A DNA stretch of 64,000 bases from Escherichia phage BF17, in sequence record MW822008.1; one strand, written 5' to 3'. A program made the position numbers and the translations under genes. How positions within the stretch are numbered: position 1 is the stretch's first letter; the number at the start of each line of letters is the position of its first letter. The notes beneath the pieces were generated by a model. It saw only the letters and a list, made by a program, of their open reading frames with translations, ran no database searches and was not told the origin of the DNA. Positions 3,257-58,175 of the stretch are shown in pieces.

Positions 3257-3321
3257 CTTTTTGATTCTCCATAAGAAGGGAACATTTGATGTATTTATAC
3301 GTGGGACAAAGACGTTTTTGG

Positions 3322-3330
3322 TGCTATAAT
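3322..3330 (+). promoter_or_regulatory. Extended -10 promoter motif TGCTATAAT upstream of the gp55-like gene
   Basis: ggTGCTATAAT about 60 nt upstream of the ATG at 3388; same 9-mer recurs at 5 other intergenic sites. Confidence 0.4.
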
Positions 3331-3387: not shown

Positions 3388-4227
3388 ATGACAAATAGGC
3401 CGAAGCGTAAAAAGTATCTTAACAATGCTGATTTACTTCGTGAGATACAAAAAAGTAAAATCTCATATTGCTGGTTACTAGATAAGTGCTACAGTATGTA
3501 CGATTATATCGTTTTTGATGAATCCGAAATTACAGCAGAACTTTTAGATAAAGCTAAAGCAGCACGTATTAAACGTCTCAACAATGAAATGCTTGATGCA
3601 ATTCGTGAAAAAGAAGGTATGAGTGCGAAGAAAGCGAAGGAATACGCAGATGAGCACAATTTAGTACTAACTGATGTACCTATCGATGAGGTGGTTATTC
3701 GTGTAATTACCGATGAACATATCCCAGCAGATACAAGAGTAAATTTTGAACCATTCAAACATTACATTGTAGATGAAGAAGGTATTCTGTACGAAGTTGT
3801 TCGTTCTCACTGGAAAGGTGATCTTGAAGACGGAGAATTCAGTACTGTTCATGGTAAAATCACTAATGAACTAGGTAAAATGTTCATTAAACTGGCAGAG
3901 GAAATCTCACACAAATCCAACTATAGAAACTATACATATTTGGATGAAATGATGGGTGATGCCAGAATACAATTAGTTAAAAACGCACTTCTCTTTAAAG
4001 AGAGTATTCTTTACAAAAAAGATAAACCAGCAGTACAGTTGAATCCTTTCTCTTACTATACTTCGTTCGTTAACAATAGTTTCCGTTCGATTCTTAATAG
4101 TGAGAAAAATGTTCGTAACATCCGAGACGATTTACTTGAGATGCATGGTTTTACACCATCACACACTCGTCAAATCGAAATTGAAATGAACATGATTGAA
4201 AGGAAAAACGAAGATGGCTCTATTTGA
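3388..4227 (+). CDS. 55: Late-transcription sigma factor, T4 gp55 family (280 aa, with an internal insertion relative to T4)
   Basis: GGAG then ATG at 3388; N-terminal 'NNADLLREI' and C-terminal 'NYTYLDEMMGDARIQLVKNALLFK...NPFSYYTSFVNNSF' align with remembered T4 gp55 blocks; sits directly upstream of gp47/gp46 as in T4. Confidence 0.75.
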   Translation: MTNRPKRKKYLNNADLLREIQKSKISYCWLLDKCYSMYDYIVFDESEITAELLDKAKAARIKRLNNEMLDAIREKEGMSAKKAKEYADEHNLVLTDVPIDEVVIRVITDEHIPADTRVNFEPFKHYIVDEEGILYEVVRSHWKGDLEDGEFSTVHGKITNELGKMFIKLAEEISHKSNYRNYTYLDEMMGDARIQLVKNALLFKESILYKKDKPAVQLNPFSYYTSFVNNSFRSILNSEKNVRNIRDDLLEMHGFTPSHTRQIEIEMNMIERKNEDGSI

Positions 4228-7915: not shown

Positions 7916-8028
7916 AAATCCCCACTAAACTAATTCTTATCAAAATATTTATGCGTTACTTCAATGTTCAAGAATTATGTACTTTTTATAAATTTTTTAT
8001 CATAATAGTGAGACACTTTTGAATTTGG

Positions 8029-8037
8029 TGCTATAAT
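8029..8037 (+). promoter_or_regulatory. Extended -10 promoter motif TGCTATAAT at the start of an ORF-free island
   Basis: tttggTGCTATAATgtt; near-identical flank to the motif at 3322. Confidence 0.4.
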
Positions 8038-12154: not shown

Positions 12155-13891
12155 ATGAGTTGGAAACGACATATGACAATGGGGAGATCGAAGTTATCGG
12201 TTGTCCCTAATCAGTCCAGTAATAGCAACAAATCAACAGGAACGAAAACAAATTTCGCTTCCTATCTTCCAGTAGTATACAATGGTTTAGCTAACCGTAC
12301 TGAACGTTATAGTCAGTATGAACAGATGGACCAAGATCCTGAAATTAGAACAGCACTTAATATCATTGCTGACTTCTGTACACAAAGTACTGAAGATTTT
12401 GGTCTTCCATATAAAATCAAATATAAAGATGATATTGGTGATACAGAAGTAACTACTATTGAAGACCGCTTGGATGCATGGACTGAACAAAATGATTTTA
12501 AAACCAGAATGTATGAAATTGTACGTGGCCTATTAAAATACGGTGACCAATTCTTCATTCGTGACCCAGAAACATTTGACTGGTACTGGGTAAGCCCAAA
12601 AAACGTTGAACAAGTATTCGTTAACGAAGCAACCGGAAAAACCCCTGTAATTTATTATATCCGTGACGTATCTTTGAATCTTAAAGATAAAGTGTTTAGT
12701 AACTTGCAAGTTGGTTTTGACAAAACTGCATATCCTGGTGCAATCCCTACCACATTAGGTGGCGGTGGTTCAGTAGCAGCAGGTGGTGCATCTGGTTTTA
12801 CTAACCAAGGAAACTCTGCTGACCCATTCAGTACTAACGGTCGTCTTGATGTTATTCCAGTTGGTGCAGAACACGTAATTCATCTAACCCTAAATACAGG
12901 ACAAGATGGAGTTTGGCCTTTTGGTACTAGTATACTTGAAGATGTTTTCAAAGTCTATAAACAAAAAGAATTACTTGAAGATAGTATTATTATCTATCGT
13001 GTTCAACGTGCTCCAGAGCGTCGTGTATTTAAAATCGACGTTGGTGATATGCAAACTCACCAAGCAATGGCATACGTAGAACGATTCAAAAATGAAATTC
13101 ACCAAAGACGTATCCCTTCAAATAAAGGTGGCAGTACTTCTCTAATGGATGCAGCATATAATCCATTAAGTATTCTAGAAGATTACTTCTTCCCACAAAC
13201 TTCTGAAGGTCGTGGTTCAGATGTACAAACACTTCCTGGTGGTGATAACTTAGGTCAGATTGATGACTTGCGTTACTTCAACAATAAATTGATTCGTGGA
13301 TTGCAAATTCCAGCTTCATATCTACCGCAAGGTCCAGATGATGGTGGTGTATCACTATTTGGTGATGGTGCAACACAAGCAATGGCAAGTGAATTACGTT
13401 TTAATAACCAATGTATGCGTTATCAACGTTTGGTTGCAAAACTATTTGATGCAGAATTTAAACGTTTTATGGTTAAAAATGGATATAACATTAGTACTTC
13501 ATCTTTTGAAGTAATTATGAATCCACCTATTAACTTGGCTTCTTATCGTAAAGCGGAACTAGATGCTAAACTAATTAACACCTATCTCCCACTTAACGAT
13601 CTGCCATATATGGCAAAACAAACTATTCTTGAAAAAATGGGCTTCTCTAAAGCTGATATTGTTAAGAATGAGCAAATGTGGCTCCAAGAAAATCCACAAG
13701 ATGGTTCTGCTCCGTCAAGTGGTGAAGAAGATGCTGCTGGGTTGCAATCTGTTGGTATAGATGCTCCTAACGATCCTGGTATGGATTTGGGTGTTGATGG
13801 TGACGGTAACTTAGAAAGTGCCGATGCTGAATACCAAGAACAACAAGGAAGTGCAGGTTTTAACCCGAATAATTTAGGCGATTCTTTTTAA
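12155..13891 (+). CDS. 20: Portal protein (T4 gp20 family)
   Basis: 'IIYRVQRAPERRVFKIDVGDM' and 'EDYFFPQTSEGRGSDVQTLPGGDNLGQIDDLRYF' match remembered T4 gp20 blocks ('[21 protein letters not shown]', 'EDYWL...VDTLPGADNTGNMEDIRWF'). Confidence 0.85.
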   Translation: MSWKRHMTMGRSKLSVVPNQSSNSNKSTGTKTNFASYLPVVYNGLANRTERYSQYEQMDQDPEIRTALNIIADFCTQSTEDFGLPYKIKYKDDIGDTEVTTIEDRLDAWTEQNDFKTRMYEIVRGLLKYGDQFFIRDPETFDWYWVSPKNVEQVFVNEATGKTPVIYYIRDVSLNLKDKVFSNLQVGFDKTAYPGAIPTTLGGGGSVAAGGASGFTNQGNSADPFSTNGRLDVIPVGAEHVIHLTLNTGQDGVWPFGTSILEDVFKVYKQKELLEDSIIIYRVQRAPERRVFKIDVGDMQTHQAMAYVERFKNEIHQRRIPSNKGGSTSLMDAAYNPLSILEDYFFPQTSEGRGSDVQTLPGGDNLGQIDDLRYFNNKLIRGLQIPASYLPQGPDDGGVSLFGDGATQAMASELRFNNQCMRYQRLVAKLFDAEFKRFMVKNGYNISTSSFEVIMNPPINLASYRKAELDAKLINTYLPLNDLPYMAKQTILEKMGFSKADIVKNEQMWLQENPQDGSAPSSGEEDAAGLQSVGIDAPNDPGMDLGVDGDGNLESADAEYQEQQGSAGFNPNNLGDSF

Positions 13892-13964
13892 TCATAAATA
13901 ACAATGTATAAGAATGAGGGTACATTAGTTTCCCTCATTATAATGCATATTCAAAGGAGATGAA

Positions 13965-14192
13965 ATGTTAAAGGACATCTTTGAATCTAGCAGTGATTCT
14001 TTATACGACCCTGAAGATGATCAGAACGTATATAAAATTACTGATTCCAGAAAACCAAAACTAACATTACAAGTACTTAATAATTTAAGAAAGTACCGTG
14101 AATTTAAAGCTAATGAAGAACAACGACGCAAAAATGTTGTCGCTGTTGTTTATGCAGCAGCACCATCCGGTGATGGTTCAGGATTAATGTAA
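13965..14192 (+). CDS. Small protein at the gp67-like position (possible prohead core protein)
   Basis: 75 aa ORF between the portal and protease genes, acidic N-terminus; call is from synteny only. Confidence 0.3.
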   Translation: MLKDIFESSSDSLYDPEDDQNVYKITDSRKPKLTLQVLNNLRKYREFKANEEQRRKNVVAVVYAAAPSGDGSGLM

Positions 14193-14292
14193 ACAAAAAT
14201 CGCACTTTTTAAAGCTTTTAAAAATGGCGAAATTTTTCAGTACTAAATAATATCATACTTTATATGAATGTAATATATCTATGGAGGATATA

Positions 14293-15123
14293 ATGGCGAA
14301 TTTAAAACTACTACAAGAAGCAATTGAAGCGTTTGCAAACGGCGAACAAGATGTTGCTGATAAAAAAATGCGTAAGTACTTTGTTGAGCAAGCTCAAGAA
14401 ATCAATAAAGAACTAGAAGAAAGCATGGACGAAGAAGAATGTGAAGTTGAAGTCAAAGACGAAGAAAAACTTGACGAAGACTTTGATGTTCAACCAGACG
14501 CTGGTCTAAATGCTGAAATCGAATACACCCTAGGTGAAGAAGATGAAAGTGCAGAAGAAGAAGTTGAATTCTCTGCTGATGCTGATGGCGAAGAAGTTGA
14601 CGCTGAAGCAGAAGTTGGTGCAGAAGTTCCTTCCGAAGACCAATGGGAATCTATTCAAGATGCTTTCCGTGGCCTACAACAAATGTTTGACGAAATCGGC
14701 GGTGATGAAGTTGACCTAGGTTCTGAAGACGAAGTTGAAGTTGGTGCGGAAGAAGAATTCGGTGCTGATGGTGAAGAATCTGAAGACGAATTTGCTGATG
14801 TACAATTCGGTGATGAGAAAGTTGGTGAGTCTTTCAAACTTAAGCAAGTTGCTGCGGTTGATAAGAAAGAAAAAGCTGGCGTTAATACCAAGTCTCCAGT
14901 TGCTCCAGAAGCTAAATCTCCAGTTCAAGGTGTTGCTCCAGTGAAATTCGCAAAAGCTTCCGAAAAACAAGTAGATTATGATTTTGAAAACGAAGATGCT
15001 ATGTCTCACACTGATGAAGACCTAGGTAAAAATGCTCGTGGCGAAATGAAAGATGTTGCGAAGCCAAAAAATACCGCTTCTAAATCTCGTTCTCCACTAC
15101 CAAAATCACAACCAAAAATCTAA
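14293..15123 (+). CDS. Highly acidic prohead core/scaffold-like protein
   Basis: GGAGGATATA then ATG at 14293; long Glu/Asp runs; sits between portal and prohead protease as T4 gp68 does. Confidence 0.4.
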   Translation: MANLKLLQEAIEAFANGEQDVADKKMRKYFVEQAQEINKELEESMDEEECEVEVKDEEKLDEDFDVQPDAGLNAEIEYTLGEEDESAEEEVEFSADADGEEVDAEAEVGAEVPSEDQWESIQDAFRGLQQMFDEIGGDEVDLGSEDEVEVGAEEEFGADGEESEDEFADVQFGDEKVGESFKLKQVAAVDKKEKAGVNTKSPVAPEAKSPVQGVAPVKFAKASEKQVDYDFENEDAMSHTDEDLGKNARGEMKDVAKPKNTASKSRSPLPKSQPKI

Positions 15124-15154
15124 CACTAAATAAAGAAAAGGAAAGGAGATCATT

Positions 15155-15775
15155 ATGAGTATGATTCGTGAATGGTCTTCATTCAATGATTCTAAAGTTG
15201 TTTTGGAACATCGTGATAATGGACTTGGTGGGCGTGATTGCTATCTTCGTGGTATTGCTATTCAAGCCGATCAAAGAAATTTAAATGAGAGAATTTACCC
15301 TTTAGCCGAAATTACTAAAGCTGTTAATAATATGGCTCAACGTTTGGCTAAAGGTGAAAGTATTCTAGTTGAATGTGACCACCCTGAAACACTAACAATT
15401 AACCTTGACCGTGTAGCAGCAATGATTACTAAGGTCTGGATGGAAGGTGCTAACGGCATGGCAGAAATCAAACTACTTGATACTGCTCATGGTACTAATA
15501 TTCGTAAAATGCTAGAAGCTGGTGTGAAACTTGGTGTAAGTTCTCGTGGTTCCGGTAACGTGGATTACAATGGAATAGTTTCTGATTTTGAAATTATCAC
15601 AATTGATATTGTTGCTCAACCTAGTGCTCCAGAGGCATACCCTACTGCGGTTTTTGAATCTCTGATGAGTAAGTACGGATCACCTTGTAATAGTCCTAAA
15701 AAAATCACAGAATCTAAAACAGTAAATAATGTAGATTCTGAAATTTACGATTTTTTCAAGAAATTAAAAGGTTAA
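15155..15775 (+). CDS. 21: Prohead core protease (T4 gp21 family)
   Basis: AAGGAGAT RBS; 'NERIYPLAEITKAVNNMAQRLAKGESILVECDHPE' parallels T4 gp21 'NKRLYPKRILEKAVKDYINEQVLTKQALGELNHPP'; 'VSSRGSG' block. Confidence 0.8.
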   Translation: MSMIREWSSFNDSKVVLEHRDNGLGGRDCYLRGIAIQADQRNLNERIYPLAEITKAVNNMAQRLAKGESILVECDHPETLTINLDRVAAMITKVWMEGANGMAEIKLLDTAHGTNIRKMLEAGVKLGVSSRGSGNVDYNGIVSDFEIITIDIVAQPSAPEAYPTAVFESLMSKYGSPCNSPKKITESKTVNNVDSEIYDFFKKLKG

Positions 15776-15785
15776 CATTTTAAAA

Positions 15786-15793
15786 ATATAAAT
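15786..15793 (+). promoter_or_regulatory. T4-type late promoter motif TATAAATA upstream of the scaffold gene
   Basis: aaaaaTATAAATAtttg about 50 nt upstream of the ATG at 15842; a gp55-like sigma is encoded in the window. Confidence 0.4.
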
Positions 15794-15841
15794 ATTTGTA
15801 TGTTGAAGTACAGATATTTCAGTACTTAAAGGAGAGAACGA

Positions 15842-16957
15842 ATGTCTAAATTAGAAAAGCTTCTAAAAGAATCATCTCTTTCTGATGAGGCAAAACAGCT
15901 AATTCAGGAAGCATGGAATGAAGAAAAAAACACACTTGCCGCAGAAATGCGTGAAGAAATGAAAGGCCGCTACAAACAAGATTTGTCCGAGCTAACCGAA
16001 GGTCTAAATACTATGGTTACTCAAGTTATCGCTGAAGAAATGGGTGCAGTATATGAAGAGAAAAAACGTCTTGTAGAAGATCGTGTAACTCTCCGTAAAA
16101 CCCTAAGTAATTTCTCTGCGTTTTCTAACTCTGTTTTGGCTGAAGAAGTTAAACAAATGCGTAAAGAACGTAAGCATCTTCAAGAATGCATGGGTAAATT
16201 CGTTAATTTCTCTAACGGTATCCTAGCAGAAGAGCTAAAAGAATTCCACATCGAGAAACGTCAACTAGTTGAAACTCGCGTTAAACTACTAGCTGAAGGC
16301 TCCCGTCAAATTGCTGAAGCACGTAACAACTTCATCAAACGTACCTCTGAAAGTGCTGCTAAATACATTGCAGAAACTACTCAGAAAAACCTATACGCTT
16401 TGAAAGAAGATCTTGTTGAAGCAAAACAAAATATGTTTGGTCGTAAAATCTTTGAAGCGTTTGCTCAAGAGTTTAATGTCAAACAATTTAATGAGAATTC
16501 ACTACTACGTTCCCTAACTGAATCAATTAAGTCTAAAGAAGACGAAATTGCACAAGTTAAACAAGAACTAAATGAAACTGTAAGTGAAGTTAAAGCTGCT
16601 AAAACCAAACTACGTATTATGGAAGATTCACAAGCTCGTAATGCGATTATGTCTGAACTAGTTAAGCCACTAACTACACAACAGAAACAAATTATGGAAT
16701 CCCTTCTAGCTACTTCTCCTACAGAAAAGCTTAAAGACGATTTCAGTAAGTACCATAAGTCAGTACTTAACGGTACTAAAGTAAATGAATCTGCTACCAC
16801 TCGTCAAGCAGTTCAGTCTTCCGCTAAGAGAACTCTTGCAGAAGGTAAAGTAATCACTGGCAACCGTCAGGCTATTGTTGAAAGCGAAGAAATGACCGCT
16901 GACGATATGGCATTCCTAAAAGAACTCGATGTTCTTTCTGGTATCAATAAAAAATAA
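15842..16957 (+). CDS. 22: Prohead scaffold protein (T4 gp22-like), coiled-coil
   Basis: AAAGGAGAG RBS; Lys/Glu-rich helical sequence with repeated heptad-like segments; between protease and capsid genes. Confidence 0.55.
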   Translation: MSKLEKLLKESSLSDEAKQLIQEAWNEEKNTLAAEMREEMKGRYKQDLSELTEGLNTMVTQVIAEEMGAVYEEKKRLVEDRVTLRKTLSNFSAFSNSVLAEEVKQMRKERKHLQECMGKFVNFSNGILAEELKEFHIEKRQLVETRVKLLAEGSRQIAEARNNFIKRTSESAAKYIAETTQKNLYALKEDLVEAKQNMFGRKIFEAFAQEFNVKQFNENSLLRSLTESIKSKEDEIAQVKQELNETVSEVKAAKTKLRIMEDSQARNAIMSELVKPLTTQQKQIMESLLATSPTEKLKDDFSKYHKSVLNGTKVNESATTRQAVQSSAKRTLAEGKVITGNRQAIVESEEMTADDMAFLKELDVLSGINKK

Positions 16958-16995
16958 ACATTTTAAAGCATTTTAATAATCAAATTTTTCAGTTC

Positions 16996-17003
16996 TATAA
17001 ATA
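16996..17003 (+). promoter_or_regulatory. T4-type late promoter motif TATAAATA upstream of the major capsid gene
   Basis: tttttcagttcTATAAATAatatcatact; the surrounding ~28 bp block is also found at 14231-14259. Confidence 0.45.
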
Positions 17004-17047
17004 ATATCATACTGAAAAACGAATATAACATCTTTAAGGAGATAATA

Positions 17048-18223
17048 ATGTCACAACTACTAAATGAATCCAAATGGGTAGCAGTTAAAGAGAAACTAGT
17101 TGAAGGTCTACAAGGTACTCGTAAGTCCGTAATGGAAACCGTACTTGATAACCATCGTAAACTAATGCTAAACGAATCTGCTACTTCTGGTGCAACCACC
17201 GCTGGTAACATCGCTACTCTAAACAAAGTGATTCTACCAATTATGCGTCGTGTTATGCCAACCGTAATCGCTAACGAAATCATCGGTGTTCAGCCAATGA
17301 CTGGCCCAGTTGGTCAGATCCACACCCTACGTGTTCAATATGCTGACAACGCTCCTGGTGTTATCGCTGGTGAAGAAATGCTTTCTCCATACAAAATCGC
17401 TAAGTCTTATACTGGTGACCTAAACGCAGACAACAGCAACCCACAAGCTGCTCCTACTAGCCAACTAGAAGGTACTATGGGTCGTCGCGTTAACATCCGT
17501 ATTCTACGTGAAACTGTTGAAGCGAAATCTCGTCGTCTATCTGCACGTTGGACTGTTGAATCTGCACAAGATGCACAATCCCAACATGGTATCGACGTTG
17601 AAGCTGAACTAATGGCTGCAATCGCTCAAGAAGTTACCGTTGAAATCGACCAAGAGCTACTAAGCCGTCTACGTGCACTACCTGGTGCTGCTGCTGTAAC
17701 TTATGACCAATCTAAAGTTACTGGTGTTGCGACCTTCGTTGGTGACGAGCACGCTGCTCTAGCTACCCTAATCAACCGTCAAGCGAACGAAGTTGCTCGT
17801 CGTACCAAACGTGGTGCTGCGAACTGGGCTGTTGTTTCTCCAACCGCTCTAACCATTCTACAGTCTGCAACTACTTCTAGTTTTGCACGTACTACTGAAG
17901 GTACTTTCGAAGCTCCAACTAACGTTAAATTTGTTGGTACTCTAAACAGCACCATGCGTATCTTCGTTGATACCTATGCAAGTGATGTTGAAGATATCCT
18001 AATTGGTTACAAAGGTAACGCTGAAACTGATGCTGGTGTGTTCTATTGCCCATACATCCCACTAATGGCTTCCGGTACTGTAATGGACCCTAACACTGGA
18101 GAACTCGTTACAACTTTCTTAACCAGATACGGGTATGTTCAGTTGACCGATAGCACCAGTTCACTAGGTAACGCTGCTGACTACTACAGTAAAATCGCTA
18201 TCAAAAACGTTACTTTCATGTAA
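17048..18223 (+). CDS. 23: Major capsid protein (T4 gp23 family, HK97-like fold)
   Basis: TAAGGAGAT RBS; 'NEIIGVQPMTGPVGQIHTLRVQY' matches the conserved gp23 'VQPMTGP' block; strong codon bias; followed by a strong terminator. Confidence 0.85.
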   Translation: MSQLLNESKWVAVKEKLVEGLQGTRKSVMETVLDNHRKLMLNESATSGATTAGNIATLNKVILPIMRRVMPTVIANEIIGVQPMTGPVGQIHTLRVQYADNAPGVIAGEEMLSPYKIAKSYTGDLNADNSNPQAAPTSQLEGTMGRRVNIRILRETVEAKSRRLSARWTVESAQDAQSQHGIDVEAELMAAIAQEVTVEIDQELLSRLRALPGAAAVTYDQSKVTGVATFVGDEHAALATLINRQANEVARRTKRGAANWAVVSPTALTILQSATTSSFARTTEGTFEAPTNVKFVGTLNSTMRIFVDTYASDVEDILIGYKGNAETDAGVFYCPYIPLMASGTVMDPNTGELVTTFLTRYGYVQLTDSTSSLGNAADYYSKIAIKNVTFM

Positions 18224-18246
18224 TAATAAAGAATTTAAATATACTA

Positions 18247-18276
18247 GGGACTCTTCGGAGTCCCTTTTCTTTTTTC
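18247..18276 (+). terminator. Intrinsic terminator after the capsid gene
   Basis: GGGACTCttcgGAGTCCCttttctttttt. Confidence 0.7.
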
Positions 18277-18287
18277 AGAAAAAAAGC

Positions 18288-18316
18288 TTGACAAGTAGAT
18301 TTTAATTATATATAAT
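18288..18316 (+). promoter_or_regulatory. Consensus sigma70-type promoter (TTGACA-17 nt-TATAAT)
   Basis: TTGACAagtagattttaattataTATAAT, exact -35 and -10 hexamers with a 17 nt spacer, right after the capsid terminator. Confidence 0.6.
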
Positions 18317-18351
18317 TACCACATACCAAAAATCACAAAGAGACAAATAAA

Positions 18352-19458
18352 ATGCCAAAAGTAAGTATCGACAAAGAAAAATTCATTGAAGAGATGAACA
18401 ACAAGTATGGAGCATATGGTGAATTTGATTTCAGCACTTTAGTATTCAAAGCCAGTAAGACAACAGTTAAATGTAATAAATGCGGAAAAGAAAATACTAA
18501 ACCTGCACTACGTCACATTTCATGTACATGTTCTTCATGTTATTCAAACATGTCACAGCGTTCGAACAACGAAAAATTTATCAGCACGGTAGAAACTAAA
18601 TTTGGAAAAGATAAATTCAAATTTGATAAACTAAATTACATTAACGCTATAACAAAAGTAACCATACTCTGTACAGACGAAGAACATAACGATTACTTTG
18701 AAATTACACCAAACAAATTTCTTACTGGTAAGGGATGTCCTATATGTAATAAAAATGAAGCATACAGTACTGAAGAATTCGTAGAAAAAGTAAAAGAAAA
18801 TTATGGTGATTCATTAGATTTAACTAACACAGTATATGTAAATCAAAAAACTAAAGTAACTGTGTATTGTAAAGCGGGTAACCATGAATGGACAGTTGAT
18901 CCGAAAACTTTACTTGTTGGTAAAACTGGCTGCGGTACATGTTCTGGTAAAGGTGGAAGAAGCACTGAACGTTTCATTGAACTTGTGTCGCCTATCCATA
19001 ACCATAAGTATGATTATAGTTTGGTTGAATATACTATAAGCGAGAATTATGTTGATATTGTATGTCCAACTCATGGTGTTTTCTCCCAACAACCAAAAGC
19101 ACATATGGCTGGTAAAGGATGCCCATCATGTGGTGAATATGGATATCAGCCATCAAAACCTGGATATTTCTATGTTCAAAAACTAACTAATAAAGATAAG
19201 ACAGTGTACAAGTATGGAATCACTGGTGATATGAAACGCCGTGTAAATGAGCAAAGTCGTCATTCTGGTTTTGAACACACAGTACTGATAGAACGTTACT
19301 TTGAAGATGGAAATCAACCATTACTGTTGGAAAAGTTCATAAAGAAATACATTGAAAGTGGTGTTGTAAGTACTGAAGAGTTGCCATCAGGATTTACTGA
19401 AACTTTTGATGCTAAGTATCTTGAAAGTGTTTTAGAAATTGTAAATACTTTTAAGTAA
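18352..19458 (+). CDS. Zinc-ribbon-repeat protein with a C-terminal GIY-YIG/T5orf172-like nuclease domain (homing-endonuclease-like)
   Basis: Four CxxC pairs ('CNKCGKEN', 'GKGCPICN', 'GCGTCSGKGG', 'GKGCPSCGEY'); C-terminal 'GYFYVQK...YKYGITGDMKRRVNEQSRH' fits the GIY-(10-11 aa)-YIG-R pattern. Confidence 0.5.
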   Translation: MPKVSIDKEKFIEEMNNKYGAYGEFDFSTLVFKASKTTVKCNKCGKENTKPALRHISCTCSSCYSNMSQRSNNEKFISTVETKFGKDKFKFDKLNYINAITKVTILCTDEEHNDYFEITPNKFLTGKGCPICNKNEAYSTEEFVEKVKENYGDSLDLTNTVYVNQKTKVTVYCKAGNHEWTVDPKTLLVGKTGCGTCSGKGGRSTERFIELVSPIHNHKYDYSLVEYTISENYVDIVCPTHGVFSQQPKAHMAGKGCPSCGEYGYQPSKPGYFYVQKLTNKDKTVYKYGITGDMKRRVNEQSRHSGFEHTVLIERYFEDGNQPLLLEKFIKKYIESGVVSTEELPSGFTETFDAKYLESVLEIVNTFK

Positions 19459-26013: not shown

Positions 26014-26316
26014 ATGGAAAATATCTATAAGCGTGTTGGTGCAGTACTGGAAGATAGTACTATCGTAAATTCAGTACTTGCATACAATAATGATGATGAA
26101 GTTGTTCTAATGTCTGCTGGTTTCACCAGATCTGGCTCTGTTGAAATTGACGGTGAGATTGTTGACGTCTATTCTATTGAAAAGAAACGCAAAGTTGTCA
26201 TTGTTGAAGATGTTAACACGTTAAAAGACTTAGAACATCTACGTTACAAATTCAACATTGGTGCAGGTGCAAACGCTGATAAGCCGTACCTTAAACGTTG
26301 GAACACAAAATACTGA
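26014..26316 (+). CDS. Hypothetical protein (100 aa)
   Basis: GGAGAGTAAT then ATG at 26014; no recognisable motif. Confidence 0.4.
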   Translation: MENIYKRVGAVLEDSTIVNSVLAYNNDDEVVLMSAGFTRSGSVEIDGEIVDVYSIEKKRKVVIVEDVNTLKDLEHLRYKFNIGAGANADKPYLKRWNTKY

Positions 26317-26420: not shown

Positions 26421-27152
26421 ATGGATCTACGCAACGTACTACGTGACCTAGTTAACACTACCAACGGCATCGACTTTTCTTGTATCGCAGTTAGCAGTGA
26501 AGACCGTGGTGATGGACAGCGTGTTTACATGGAAGCATACACCGATGACCGCACCCTAGTTATGCGTGCTCACACTAAAGAAGACGTACCAGAAGTTCAA
26601 GGTCGTTTTGGTCTTGGTAACCTAGGTCTTCTACAGGGTCTAATGTCTCTAAAAACTTATAGTACTGAAGGAACTACTATCACTTCTAACTTGAAAGATG
26701 GTGCAGTTAAGAGCCTAGCATTCAAAGCAGAAGATGCAAGTACTACTTTCATGGTTCAACCAGAAAAACTAATTCCAGCCCAGCCTCGTTTCCACGAACA
26801 ACCATATGACGTACAGGTTACACCTAGTGCAGCTAAAGTTCAGGAACTAAAAAGCTTCTCTGGTGTGTTTAAATCTTTCAGTTCTCTAGTAACTCCATAC
26901 ACTGAAGGTGATACTCTTTACTTCCACGTTGGTGAGAAGAACAAAAGTAACCACGTTGGTGCACTAGCATTCTCTAAAACTGAAGGTGAACTAGGTCTTG
27001 GTTTTGGTTATAACATTGATCGTGTTCTACAAGCTCTATCCCGCGTTTCTAACGCAGAATCTGTTACCCTTGGTATTACAAAAACTGGTATGCTAAACGT
27101 AACTCTAGACACTGGTATTGCGGTATACAAGATTTACGTAACTGGTTGCTAA
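26421..27152 (+). CDS. Putative sliding clamp (T4 gp45-like)
   Basis: Size close to gp45; strongly codon-biased; 'GLGNLGLLQGLMSL' and 'KAEDASTTFMVQPEKLIPAQP' resemble remembered gp45 stretches. Needs profile confirmation. Confidence 0.4.
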   Translation: MDLRNVLRDLVNTTNGIDFSCIAVSSEDRGDGQRVYMEAYTDDRTLVMRAHTKEDVPEVQGRFGLGNLGLLQGLMSLKTYSTEGTTITSNLKDGAVKSLAFKAEDASTTFMVQPEKLIPAQPRFHEQPYDVQVTPSAAKVQELKSFSGVFKSFSSLVTPYTEGDTLYFHVGEKNKSNHVGALAFSKTEGELGLGFGYNIDRVLQALSRVSNAESVTLGITKTGMLNVTLDTGIAVYKIYVTGC

Positions 27153-29796: not shown

Positions 29797-29929
29797 AAAA
29801 ATCTCCTTGTCAAATTTTGTGCAGGAACACCCTGCTTAATATTATTTATCAAAAAATATAAACCACATTTAAATTTAAGGCAATATTCCCTGATCTCTAT
29901 GATATTATTTATCAAATCTGGGAAAGTGA

Positions 29930-44271: not shown

Positions 44272-45249
44272 ATGGCTCATCACGGCGTGTTTATGTACCC
44301 TTATAACCAAGAAGTATCATTGGGCAATTTTAATATGCCATATAGCAATGAGAAACTTACAATATACAGAGGTGCAAATAACAATTTATCATTCACAGTG
44401 CATAACGCTGATGGAAAATATACATTACTAAAAGATAACGAATATCTAACATTCATGATTTTTGATGCTAGAAACAATACTAAATTATTCGATGTAGTTT
44501 TGGATAAACAAAAACCATCATGGCTATCAGAAAGTGGACAAGCAAGACAAACATTAGGTAATAGTAAAAAAGTATATTATGGATGTATTGTTCCTGCTGG
44601 TGTAATTCAGGATACTAGTCCTGGTTCAAAATATAGATGGAGTATTACTAAAGTAACAATGGATGGTTCCTTGATTGAACCTACACAGTACTTATACACT
44701 GGTCTTGATTATGAAGCCTCTGCTGAATTGATCATTTCCGACCAAGCTGCTCCTGTGTTTGTGCCAAGTATTGAAGTATCTGTTAATAAAAACCCAGCAT
44801 GGACTACCATCAAACGCTTGTATCATGAACCAATCGCTCGTGGCGTTATTGGTGAATTTGATATAATGGCAACATCTCCCCTTCCTGCACAAATGCAGTA
44901 CGGATTAGTTGATGGTCTTAGTACTATTGCAATGTACTTTGATAAATTCATTGGTAGAATTCAATTACAAGGATGTTTGTGTAATAACGTACCAACTGAT
45001 AACGAAAACTATAAATGGTTTATTGTTAAATTGGATGGTAAAGAATATATCGAAAATGATATTGATGAAAATGGATTCCCTAAAGCGTTAGATGGGATTC
45101 AAGCATTTAATTTTAAAGGTAATTACATGTGGTTGCGATTGGTTGTTTGTATTCATCCTAAGATCGTTCCAGTTCCTTATGACTATGCGGCAGTAAGAAA
45201 AGTCTATGACCCACTACTGTCAGTTCCTAAAATTTTGATTCGCAGGTGA
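44272..45249 (+). CDS. Hypothetical protein, possibly structural
   Basis: GGAAGGAAAAACT then ATG at 44272 (the track ORF extends upstream without RBS); 325 aa. Confidence 0.4.
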   Translation: MAHHGVFMYPYNQEVSLGNFNMPYSNEKLTIYRGANNNLSFTVHNADGKYTLLKDNEYLTFMIFDARNNTKLFDVVLDKQKPSWLSESGQARQTLGNSKKVYYGCIVPAGVIQDTSPGSKYRWSITKVTMDGSLIEPTQYLYTGLDYEASAELIISDQAAPVFVPSIEVSVNKNPAWTTIKRLYHEPIARGVIGEFDIMATSPLPAQMQYGLVDGLSTIAMYFDKFIGRIQLQGCLCNNVPTDNENYKWFIVKLDGKEYIENDIDENGFPKALDGIQAFNFKGNYMWLRLVVCIHPKIVPVPYDYAAVRKVYDPLLSVPKILIRR

Positions 45250-45266
45250 GACAAAACAAGTGTTTG

Positions 45267-45275
45267 TGCTATAAT
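45267..45275 (+). promoter_or_regulatory. Extended -10 promoter motif TGCTATAAT
   Basis: gtttgTGCTATAATcat about 30 nt upstream of the primase start. Confidence 0.4.
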
Positions 45276-58142: not shown

Positions 58143-58166
58143 AATTTAGGACAAACACCAGAACTG

Positions 58167-58175
58167 TGCTATAAT
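58167..58175 (+). promoter_or_regulatory. Extended -10 promoter motif TGCTATAAT
   Basis: gaacTGTGCTATAATgag about 30 nt upstream of the ATG at 58205. Confidence 0.4.

Follow-up and report, generated by a model that had tools for sequence, protein, structure and literature searches.

Why should the DNA in front of two different head genes of a jumbo phage carry nearly the same block of sequence? We addressed this question in Escherichia phage BF17 (sequence record MW822008.1), of which one stretch of 64,000 nucleotides was analyzed (the window); one copy of the block (copy 1, 14231-14259) lies upstream of the gene for a very acidic, head-core-like virion protein and the other (copy 2, 16983-17013) upstream of the gene for the major capsid protein. 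The window comes from a RaK2-like (genus Asteriusvirus) jumbo myovirus of a ~350-kb group, and we consider it likely that the blocks are the late promoters and leader starts of the acidic head protein and major capsid protein messages, built on a common architecture, homogenized within Asteriusvirus and under purifying selection. Promoters of this type have already been predicted for the phage group, and the finding is real and mostly ordinary, with the placing of the capsid promoter inside a possible hairpin as its sole unusual aspect. It nevertheless places two late promoters, with their likely starts and leaders, in a 350-kb phage group that is under development for therapy.

Two probable late promoters in front of head genes

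14231-14259, plus strand: copy 1 of the block, made of a T-tract, CAGT, CTAAATA (14243-14249), ATATC and CATACT, in which A 14255 is the predicted start
14255-14292, plus strand: predicted leader of the acidic-protein mRNA from that putative start, 38 nt, with GGAGG at 14283-14287
14293-15123, plus strand: gene for the acidic virion (head-core-like) protein; phrog_15696, virion structural protein, E 6.7e-110
16983-17013, plus strand: copy 2 of the block, made of a T-tract, CAGT, TATAAATA (16996-17003), ATATC and CATACT, in which A 17009 is the predicted start
17009-17047, plus strand: predicted leader of the capsid mRNA, 39 nt, its start set by spacing, with AAGGAG at 17036-17041
17048-18223, plus strand: major capsid protein gene (gp23-like)
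29895-29913, minus strand: partial third copy of the block, GATAAATAATATCATAGAG, the first of two tandem late promoters, the second having ATAAATA from 29849

Copy 1 reads aatttttcagtactaaataatatcatact and copy 2 reads aatttttcagttctataaataatatcatact, and one substitution (A/T) plus a 2-nt indel (TA) separate the two, which bears out the near-identity that an earlier note on this DNA had described. That note had also placed a TATAAATA core in both copies, which is true of copy 2 alone, as copy 1 has ACTAAATA in its place and matches the core at 6 of 8 positions. The likeness moreover reaches well past the ~28 bp first claimed for it, the two intergenic regions aligning over their full length of ~100 nt, from the upstream stop codon to the start codon, with 83% mean column identity. 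The downstream genes had been assigned correctly as those of a very acidic virion protein (pI 4.05; Asp+Glu 84/280) and of the major capsid protein. Translation of the acidic protein most likely starts at 14293 and not at the first in-frame ATG at 14281, where the mechanical open reading frame (ORF) opens; ATG 14293 follows a conserved GGAGGATATA and is the start annotated in Escherichia phage fEgEco12.

Searches for further copies returned very few. A degenerate pattern derived from copy 2, which is unable to register copy 1 across the indel, matched copy 2 alone in the window at up to 3 mismatches and was expected 0.00 times (100 dinucleotide shuffles), and the 15-mer shared by the copies, AAATAATATCATACT, has exact matches in the window at the two block sites only. 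Across a 376-kb composite genome, assembled from the window and pieces of its nearest relative fEgEco12, there are two full copies, both of them those of the window and both 5' of late virion genes, and the block was found neither at random positions nor within coding sequence in the window or the composite. One partial third copy, GATAAATAATATCATAgag, runs from 29913 to 29895 on the minus strand, 5' of a virion-protein gene, and is kept in phage 121Q; the tandem promoters to which it belongs precede two paralogous virion-protein genes (29796-29197 and 29181-28492), and virion proteins are encoded 3' of all three ATAAATAATATCATA occurrences.

The core motif itself is distributed as a promoter element would be. 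ATAAATA occurs 19 times in the window, mostly 20-70 nt 5' of gene starts and on the correct strand, and 49 times in the composite, where each of the other 20 7-mers with this base content (five A, two T) occurs 137-251 times, so that it is depleted ~4-fold genome-wide. Its remaining copies are intergenic in 57% of cases (pooled controls, 21%) and lie 15-120 nt 5' of a same-strand start in 47% (pooled controls, 8%). The core of copy 1, CTAAATA, has 34 copies against ~140 for words of the same composition and is intergenic in 38% against 13%, and the distribution of GTAAATA is promoter-like as well. A motif that is purged from a genome yet retained before its genes bears the signature of a real promoter element, and enrichment before virion genes combined with purging elsewhere gives a better criterion for late promoters in this clade than a MEME consensus does.

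A logo of 46 candidate late promoters shows how little else these sites have in common. Positions -35 to -1 hold at most 0.32 bit, with no -35-like signal, and outside NTAAATA there is almost no information except for a weak T-tract 8-12 nt 5' of the core and a purine at the predicted start, found at core+12 (6 nt after the core) in 39 of the 46 sites (85%). T4 late transcripts likewise start 6 nt after their promoter element, and it is from this T4-like spacing together with the core+12 purine peak that A 14255 and A 17009 are predicted as starts. Each block would then span ~-24 to +5, with its last 5 nt inside the predicted leader. The proposal of a shared late promoter or leader element is thereby supported, since a late-promoter core stands at the right distance from a late virion gene in both blocks. 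For the word "extended" the outcome is mixed: as a general element an extended late promoter finds no backing in the near-uninformative flanks of the 46 sites, and the extension is specific to the two head-gene promoters, where the order T-tract, core and AAT..CATAC is common to both in every genus and the near-identity is a property of Asteriusvirus.

The window also encodes a sigma factor of the kind that such promoters would need.

3388-4227, plus strand: late sigma factor gene (gp55 family); phrog_12791 at E 1.4e-152 and phrog_234 at E 1.5e-16

The two families are described as "sigma factor for late transcription" and "late sigma transcription factor", respectively, the annotation of the gene in 121Q agrees, and tblastn with the protein reached genes annotated as gp55 in T4-like cyanophages (E 1e-5 to 6e-8). 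Its start is most likely 3388 and not the first in-frame ATG at 3289, where the mechanical ORF opens; ATG 3388 has a GGAG Shine-Dalgarno sequence and yields the length annotated in 121Q.

Taken together, these observations suggest the following mechanism. The blocks would serve the two most heavily needed head-gene messages, and in each of them a T4-type -10-like element, (T)ATAAATA or ACTAAATA, would be read without a -35 box by host RNA polymerase carrying the phage's gp55-family sigma factor, with both the sigma dependence and the strength of the promoters being predicted ones. A 5-nt AT-rich spacer, ATATC, would lead to a start in CA(+1)TACT, and both promoters would yield similar short leaders of 38 and 39 nt that end in a strong Shine-Dalgarno sequence. 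Folding is consistent with open leaders, as the stretch 14255-14283 of the acidic-protein leader is unstructured and the capsid leader on its own is unstructured as well (-1.8 kcal/mol, z -0.4).

The closest well-described counterpart is the T4 late promoter (TATAAATA; gp55, gp33 and the gp45 clamp), with which the sites share the same 8-bp element (exact in copy 2), the lack of a -35 signal, a purine start 6 nt after the element and a phage-encoded gp55-family sigma factor. The gene order protease, scaffold, capsid with a terminator at its end also corresponds to the T4 gene 21-22-23 cluster. Unlike in T4, the first core position is relaxed here (ATAAATA, CTAAATA, GTAAATA), a conserved inverted repeat brackets the capsid promoter, and the capsid gene has a 90-nt promoter-bearing intergenic region in front of it where T4 genes 22 and 23 are only 18 nt apart, which made a comparison with T4 P23 uninformative.

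Within the clade, an ATAAATA late motif and a gp55-like sigma factor have been predicted for phages CBB and GAP32 (Buttimer et al. 2017, PMC5259590), and the likeness extends to AT-rich sequence downstream of the motif, its location 5' of structural genes and a gp55-like sigma gene that lies beside SbcCD genes. The passages of that paper available to us present the motif as a MEME consensus only and mention neither a near-identical pair of promoters nor the depletion of the motif, and neither the CTAAATA variant, a junction of terminator and promoter nor an inverted repeat at the capsid gene. As for PA5oct, the passages found of an RNA-seq paper on that phage give TATAATA/TTGAC promoter motifs and contain no TATAAATA.

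Several points weigh against the reading of the blocks as late promoters. Copy 1 is without a canonical TATAAATA, and the generic promoter logo leaves the flanks of the blocks unexplained, the constraint on them exceeding what "late promoter" accounts for, most of all in the inverted repeat at the capsid gene. A literature search found no transcript maps for this phage or its RaK2-like relatives, and the starts and the timing are for that reason predicted ones. The assignment of the sigma factor draws on PHROGs and on weak tblastn matches to cyanophage gp55 (25-34% identity, in the C-terminal part), and the protein had no match in Pfam, NCBIfam or the PDB sequences. The "sliding clamp" annotated in fEgEco12 corresponds to window 26421-27152, belongs to a PHROG family of unknown function and likewise had no match in Pfam, NCBIfam or PDB.

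A second repeated promoter-like motif, GTG(A/G)GACA followed after ~13 nt by T(G)GTGCTATAAT, an extended -10, was seen on the plus strand at 3301-3330, 8008-8037, 45246-45275 and 58165-58175, with one copy 58 nt 5' of the likely sigma start; its likely counterpart in CBB and GAP32 is the middle promoter described there as "divergent RpoD-like" (PMC5259590).

The hairpin beside copy 1 and the inverted repeat around the capsid promoter

14200-14230, plus strand: terminator-like hairpin of a 75-aa gene; the T-tract after it, 14233-14237, forms the first part of copy 1
16985-16993, plus strand: 5' arm of the inverted repeat, TTTTTCAGT, comprising the T-tract and CAGT of copy 2
17011-17019, plus strand: 3' arm of the inverted repeat, ACTGAAAAA, at +3 to +11 of the predicted capsid transcript

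The T-tract that opens each block differs in meaning between the copies, as it would be the tail of a terminator-like hairpin in copy 1 and is an arm of an inverted repeat in copy 2. The hairpin beside copy 1 is a stem with an internal loop (-7.9 kcal/mol, z -2.3) followed by AAATTTTT, on which a simple terminator scan made no call. At the same place EJP2, Munch, GAP32, RaK2 and XaC1 have strong hairpins with other stem sequences and a T-run after them (-12 to -18.6 kcal/mol, z -4 to -6.7), and the Munch record annotates a terminator at this position. The adjoining of copy 1 to what looks like a conserved terminator is, on this comparison, a new feature of the locus. The upstream half of copy 2 (CATTTTAAAGCATTTTAATAATC) resembles the copy 1-type terminator hairpin minus its GC clamp.

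At copy 2 the arms are exact reverse complements of 9 bp, and the capsid promoter lies within the 17-nt loop between them. Asteriusvirus has the arms TTTTTCAGT/ACTGAAAAA, Munch has TTTTTCAG/CTGAAAAA, EJP2 and Hallingskeid have TTTTCAGT/ACTGAAAA, GAP32, CBB and BF have TTTTCTGT(A)/(T)ACAGAAAA, the relative L104 has TTTTTCTG/CAGAAAAA, and RaK2 and K64-1 have CTTTTTCAGT/ATTGAAAAAG with one G.T pair. XaC1, L012 and L102 keep a weaker TTGT/ACAA repeat of 4-5 bp, and in the diverged L106 (74% capsid identity) ATAAATA stands between arms of 7 bp with an unrelated sequence, TCTTAAA/TTTAAGA. In RaK2-like genera 15-18 nt separate the arms; in L106 the figure is 12 nt. Judged from these alignments, the second new feature of the locus would be a capsid promoter in the loop of a 9-bp inverted repeat that has been kept with compensatory changes.

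These patterns raise a tentative alternative, which we hold to be rather unlikely, namely that the capsid promoter is part of a structured element whose outer block is conserved for pairing. The stem-loop would act either in read-through RNA (processing, stability or insulation) or as a DNA cruciform or hairpin that presents TAAATA. Among the 46 candidate promoters the repeat is the second longest, arms of at least 9 bp being expected ~0.08 times per 46-site flank-shuffle replicate, and it recurs in every RaK2-like genus with changed sequence (CAGT/ACTG, CTGT/ACAG, TTGT/ACAA and the G.T version of RaK2), the unrelated arms of L106 adding to this. In a gap-free alignment of the arms only, with 10 distinct versions, 84% of cells pair against 49-59% with the partner slid, both partners have changed at two positions (A-U to U-A, C-G to U-A), and the covariation score of 0.284 compares with 0.143 in shuffles and was reached by 0 of 500; the register of this alignment was picked by eye for best pairing, which biases the counts towards structure. 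The RNA fold of the element is also favorable (-7.0 kcal/mol, z -3.8, with 1 of 200 shuffles as good) and has similar counterparts in GAP32 (-7.0 kcal/mol), RaK2 (-9.4) and L106 (-4.7), and the variable spacing between the arms favors pairing of nucleic acid over the operator of a dimeric protein.

Other observations hold this alternative back. The compensatory events amount to about two independent ones, with the choice of register adding its bias, and the outer 5 bp, a T-run opposite an A-run, could simply reflect the excess of T upstream and of A downstream that late promoters have in general. XaC1, L012 and L102 have only a weak repeat, and copy 1 has no comparable repeat (4 bp), so that pairing cannot explain the share of the block that copy 1 carries. 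RNAalifold on a MAFFT alignment of the capsid upstream regions gave no consensus structure, the 5' arms being out of register by eye, and Rfam covariance models gave no match at E <=1 on either strand of 13800-18400. We also considered flanking repeats as a general property of late promoters, and the excess is only mild (9 sites with at least 6 bp against 4.3 expected, with a maximum of 10 in 200 shuffles).

The genes e, soc, 49 and I-TevI of T4 offer a precedent, as each has a late promoter inside a hairpin that, in longer early RNAs, makes the ribosome-binding site inaccessible. The arrangement here is alike in that the promoter stands between the arms of a stem-loop, so that its own transcript lacks the 5' arm and a read-through RNA can form the hairpin. 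It is unlike in the occlusion that defines the T4 cases: AAGGAG has an unpaired probability of 0.36-0.54 in the full intergenic RNA and 0.45-0.70 in RNA from the predicted start, with no difference conserved across genera, and in six of seven genomes its accessibility is similar whether the RNA reads through or begins at the promoter. The 3' arm ends ~17 nt 5' of the Shine-Dalgarno sequence, and the stem-loop leaves the ribosome-binding site uncovered. Occlusion of that site in read-through RNA on the model of T4 lysozyme was accordingly rejected, since the outer helix of the window, UUUUAAAG with CUUUAAGG, has an effect that is not kept in the six other genomes.

We hold a real structural role of the inverted repeat to be doubtful. 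One form of it would be a T4-type late promoter of a hitherto undescribed variety, embedded in structure, in which use of the promoter (through a pre-melted or extruded -10 for the gp55-type sigma factor) or the fate of the read-through head-operon RNA would depend on structure and the block would be the footprint of this device, partly copied onto the core-protein promoter in Asteriusvirus; this we regard as improbable. The repeat nevertheless bears on whether structure contributes to T4-type late transcription or to the processing of head-operon RNA.

Conservation of the blocks and the weaker explanations

To place the two copies among relatives, we compared a 4.4-kb region around the blocks, which is 99% identical in Escherichia phages EC.P1, WPEC5 and fEgEco12, ~90% identical in 121Q and PBECO4 (both genus Asteriusvirus) and recognizably related in GAP32, CBB, BF, RaK2, K64-1, Munch and others. 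Both promoters have the form T-tract - N - ATAAATAA(T) - NN(N) - CATAC in every genus, with ATATT in both copies of RaK2, and both leaders end in ATCT..GGAG..ATAATG across genera. Because this architecture is common to both cassettes in every genus, the cassettes would be either old paralogues or held to one optimum.

The likeness within a genome is a different matter. Local alignment of copy 1 with copy 2 scores 47-50 in Asteriusvirus and 16-26 in five other lineages, with shuffles at 12-16 (standard deviation 2.1-2.6); these scores were used in place of a fixed-register measure of concerted evolution, which the 2-nt indel made uninformative. A generic promoter does not explain the identity of the flanks, because the flanks are near-uninformative across the 46 sites. 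Between the window and 121Q, the intergenic region of copy 1 is 94.3% identical and that of copy 2 is 100% identical, against 68-84% at third codon positions of the flanking genes and 71-80% in other intergenic regions, and the 90-nt region upstream of the capsid gene is kept at >=99% identity in 37 phage records. On this comparative evidence the likeness appears to have three layers, which are an old shared architecture, a homogenization specific to Asteriusvirus and strong purifying selection since then. The homogenization would most simply have been a gene-conversion-like exchange in the Asteriusvirus lineage, the near-identity being kept by selection now.

If one takes exchange alone, the copies would be nothing but the product of a recent duplication or gene conversion, a repeat that is mainly a substrate for recombination with nothing functional beyond the minimal core. 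The jump in within-genome scores in Asteriusvirus is what lineage-specific conversion would give, and copy 1 of the window is nearer to copy 2 (AAATTTTTCAGT) than copy 1 of 121Q is (TTTTATTCAGT). We judge this explanation quite unlikely all the same, since the window and 121Q have split far enough to leave ~85-90% nucleotide identity and synonymous sites at 68-84%, with the copy 2 region unchanged and copy 1 at 94% over the same time, which argues that the full intergenic length is under selection and not drifting. The relatives examined also have no deletion or rearrangement between the copies. The suggestion that the block is a recombination-prone repeat accordingly gains nothing from the ~30 close relatives listed, all of them collinear in one piece over 98-99% of the query, nor does the expectation of deletions between the copies, none being present among the listed relatives with >=88% nucleotide identity over the 4.4-kb region. 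Such a deletion would also take out the core-protein, protease and scaffold genes, genes that the phage presumably cannot do without in head assembly, to judge from T4 genes 21 and 22.

One record departs from this picture. Salmonella phage SD-1_S14 (L089, ~1294-1430) is missing 27 nt (GATTTTATTCAGTACTAAATAATATCA), including the whole copy 1 promoter. Many other small deletions occur in the region of this record, some within the downstream gene, and the record is ~40 kb shorter than its relatives; the loss may be an assembly artefact and is not trusted.

Further out, the capsid promoter is absent. Relatives with capsid identity of at most ~70% (L016-L081 and L108-L178 in the set examined) have the capsid gene after the scaffold gene with a short spacer and no [A/C]TAAATA, and the intermediates L105, L106 and L015 (72-78% capsid identity) still have [A/C]TAAATA 5' of the capsid gene. 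A scan of metagenomes added few close relatives (L099-L107) and gave the diverged cases L104, L105 and L106. A dedicated capsid promoter in a 90-nt spacer thus appears to characterize the RaK2-like clade together with its nearest relatives.

A dimeric regulator, of phage or host origin, could also be imagined to bind the inverted repeat and block as an operator overlapping the capsid promoter, and so to repress that promoter or set its timing, since palindromic half-sites bracket the -10 region and symmetric changes in the arms would fit co-evolution with such a protein. We find this very unlikely, as close relatives differ by 1-3 bp in how far apart the half-sites stand (12 nt in L106), a variation that a rigid dimer on B-DNA would not tolerate, the G.T combination of RaK2 pairs only in RNA, no candidate regulator was identified and copy 1 is without a second half-site. 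A chance resemblance of two AT-rich intergenic stretches, in a genome of 36% G+C whose intergenic regions are richer still in A+T, has next to nothing to commend it given 0.00 expected occurrences in shuffles, an alignment score of 50 against 15.2 +/- 2.6 and the conservation of both regions in dozens of genomes.

Neighboring genes, the AGTACT excess and other genome words

The late promoters of copies 1 and 2 sit in a head-gene region with the following further features.

12155-13891: portal gene
13894-13900: ATAAATA belonging to the 75-aa gene
13965-14192, plus strand: small conserved gene, 75 aa, between the portal gene and copy 1
15155-15775, plus strand: prohead protease gene (gp21-like)
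15787-15794, plus strand: TATAAATA late promoter 5' of the scaffold gene
15842-16957: scaffold gene
18246-18275, plus strand: strong intrinsic terminator at the end of the head operon, an 8-bp GC-rich stem followed by TTTCTTTTTT

The intergenic region upstream of the scaffold gene (15776-15841) is 98.5% identical in 121Q, far above the identity of synonymous sites, and the scaffold leader contains a small hairpin (15815-15836, plus strand), AAGTAC..GTACTT, directly 5' of its Shine-Dalgarno sequence. Directly after the capsid terminator lies an ORF of 368 aa (18288-19458, plus strand), with a perfect sigma-70 consensus promoter 5' of it (TTGACA, 17 nt, TATAAT; 18288-18316) and weak Pfam matches below the cutoff to a zinc-finger, DUF723 and T5orf172 (endonuclease-like). 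There is no such ORF at this site in fEgEco12 or SD-1_S14, and a gene is there in 121Q, RaK2 (annotated as an endonuclease) and EJP2, a distribution that suggests a mobile homing-endonuclease insertion.

No word is more strongly over-represented in the genome than the palindrome AGTACT, which copy 1 contains at 14239-14244. Its sites in the window number 120, with 20 +/- 4.5 in shuffles (14239-14244, 15821-15826 and 26043-26078, for example), often as TTCAGTACTGAA, and the composite has 1117 against 128 expected (8.7-fold), with CAGTACTG reaching 263 against 4 expected (64-fold). The excess lies mostly in coding sequence and in all three frames, where Ser-Thr is written AGT-ACT in 431 of 802 cases (124 expected) and Val-Leu is written GTA-CTN in 415 of 794 (163 expected); both dipeptides are themselves in excess, which their reversals are not, and the one-step neighbors of AGTACT are not depleted. 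Between the window and 121Q, 67-74% of AGTACT sites are conserved against 42% for 6-mers of the same composition. AGTACT is dense in the terminal early regions with sigma-70-like promoters (AGTACTTGCA..TTCAGTACTGTATAAT). Every RaK2-like genus sampled has an excess of 3.3- to 7.8-fold, and there is none in more distant capsid relatives or in T4.

A tie between the CAGTACT of the block and this excess was considered and rejected, with 8 sites within 60 nt of the 46 promoters, below the genome average, and with the arms of GAP32 type being CTGT/ACAG and not CAGT/ACTG; the AGTACT in copy 1 looks incidental. The excess, summarized as 6- to 9-fold for the clade, is likely of more interest than the block, as it marks the whole clade, shapes codon and dipeptide usage and points to a genome-wide DNA-recognition system. 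Candidates for it are a modification, nicking or binding site, or a sequence with which the phage marks itself, and our literature search found no publication on it.

Other words also depart from expectation in the composite genome. GGTACC and CGTACG are absent (0 against ~40 expected each), TGTACA is 1.8-fold over expectation and GATC is under-represented (691 against 1240 expected). E. coli Chi, GCTGGTGG, is enriched ~26-fold on the plus strand (34 copies) and ~11-fold on the minus strand (14 copies), from an expectation of 1.3 for either strand, and the Chi-related CTGGTG and TGGTG are among the top over-represented k-mers.

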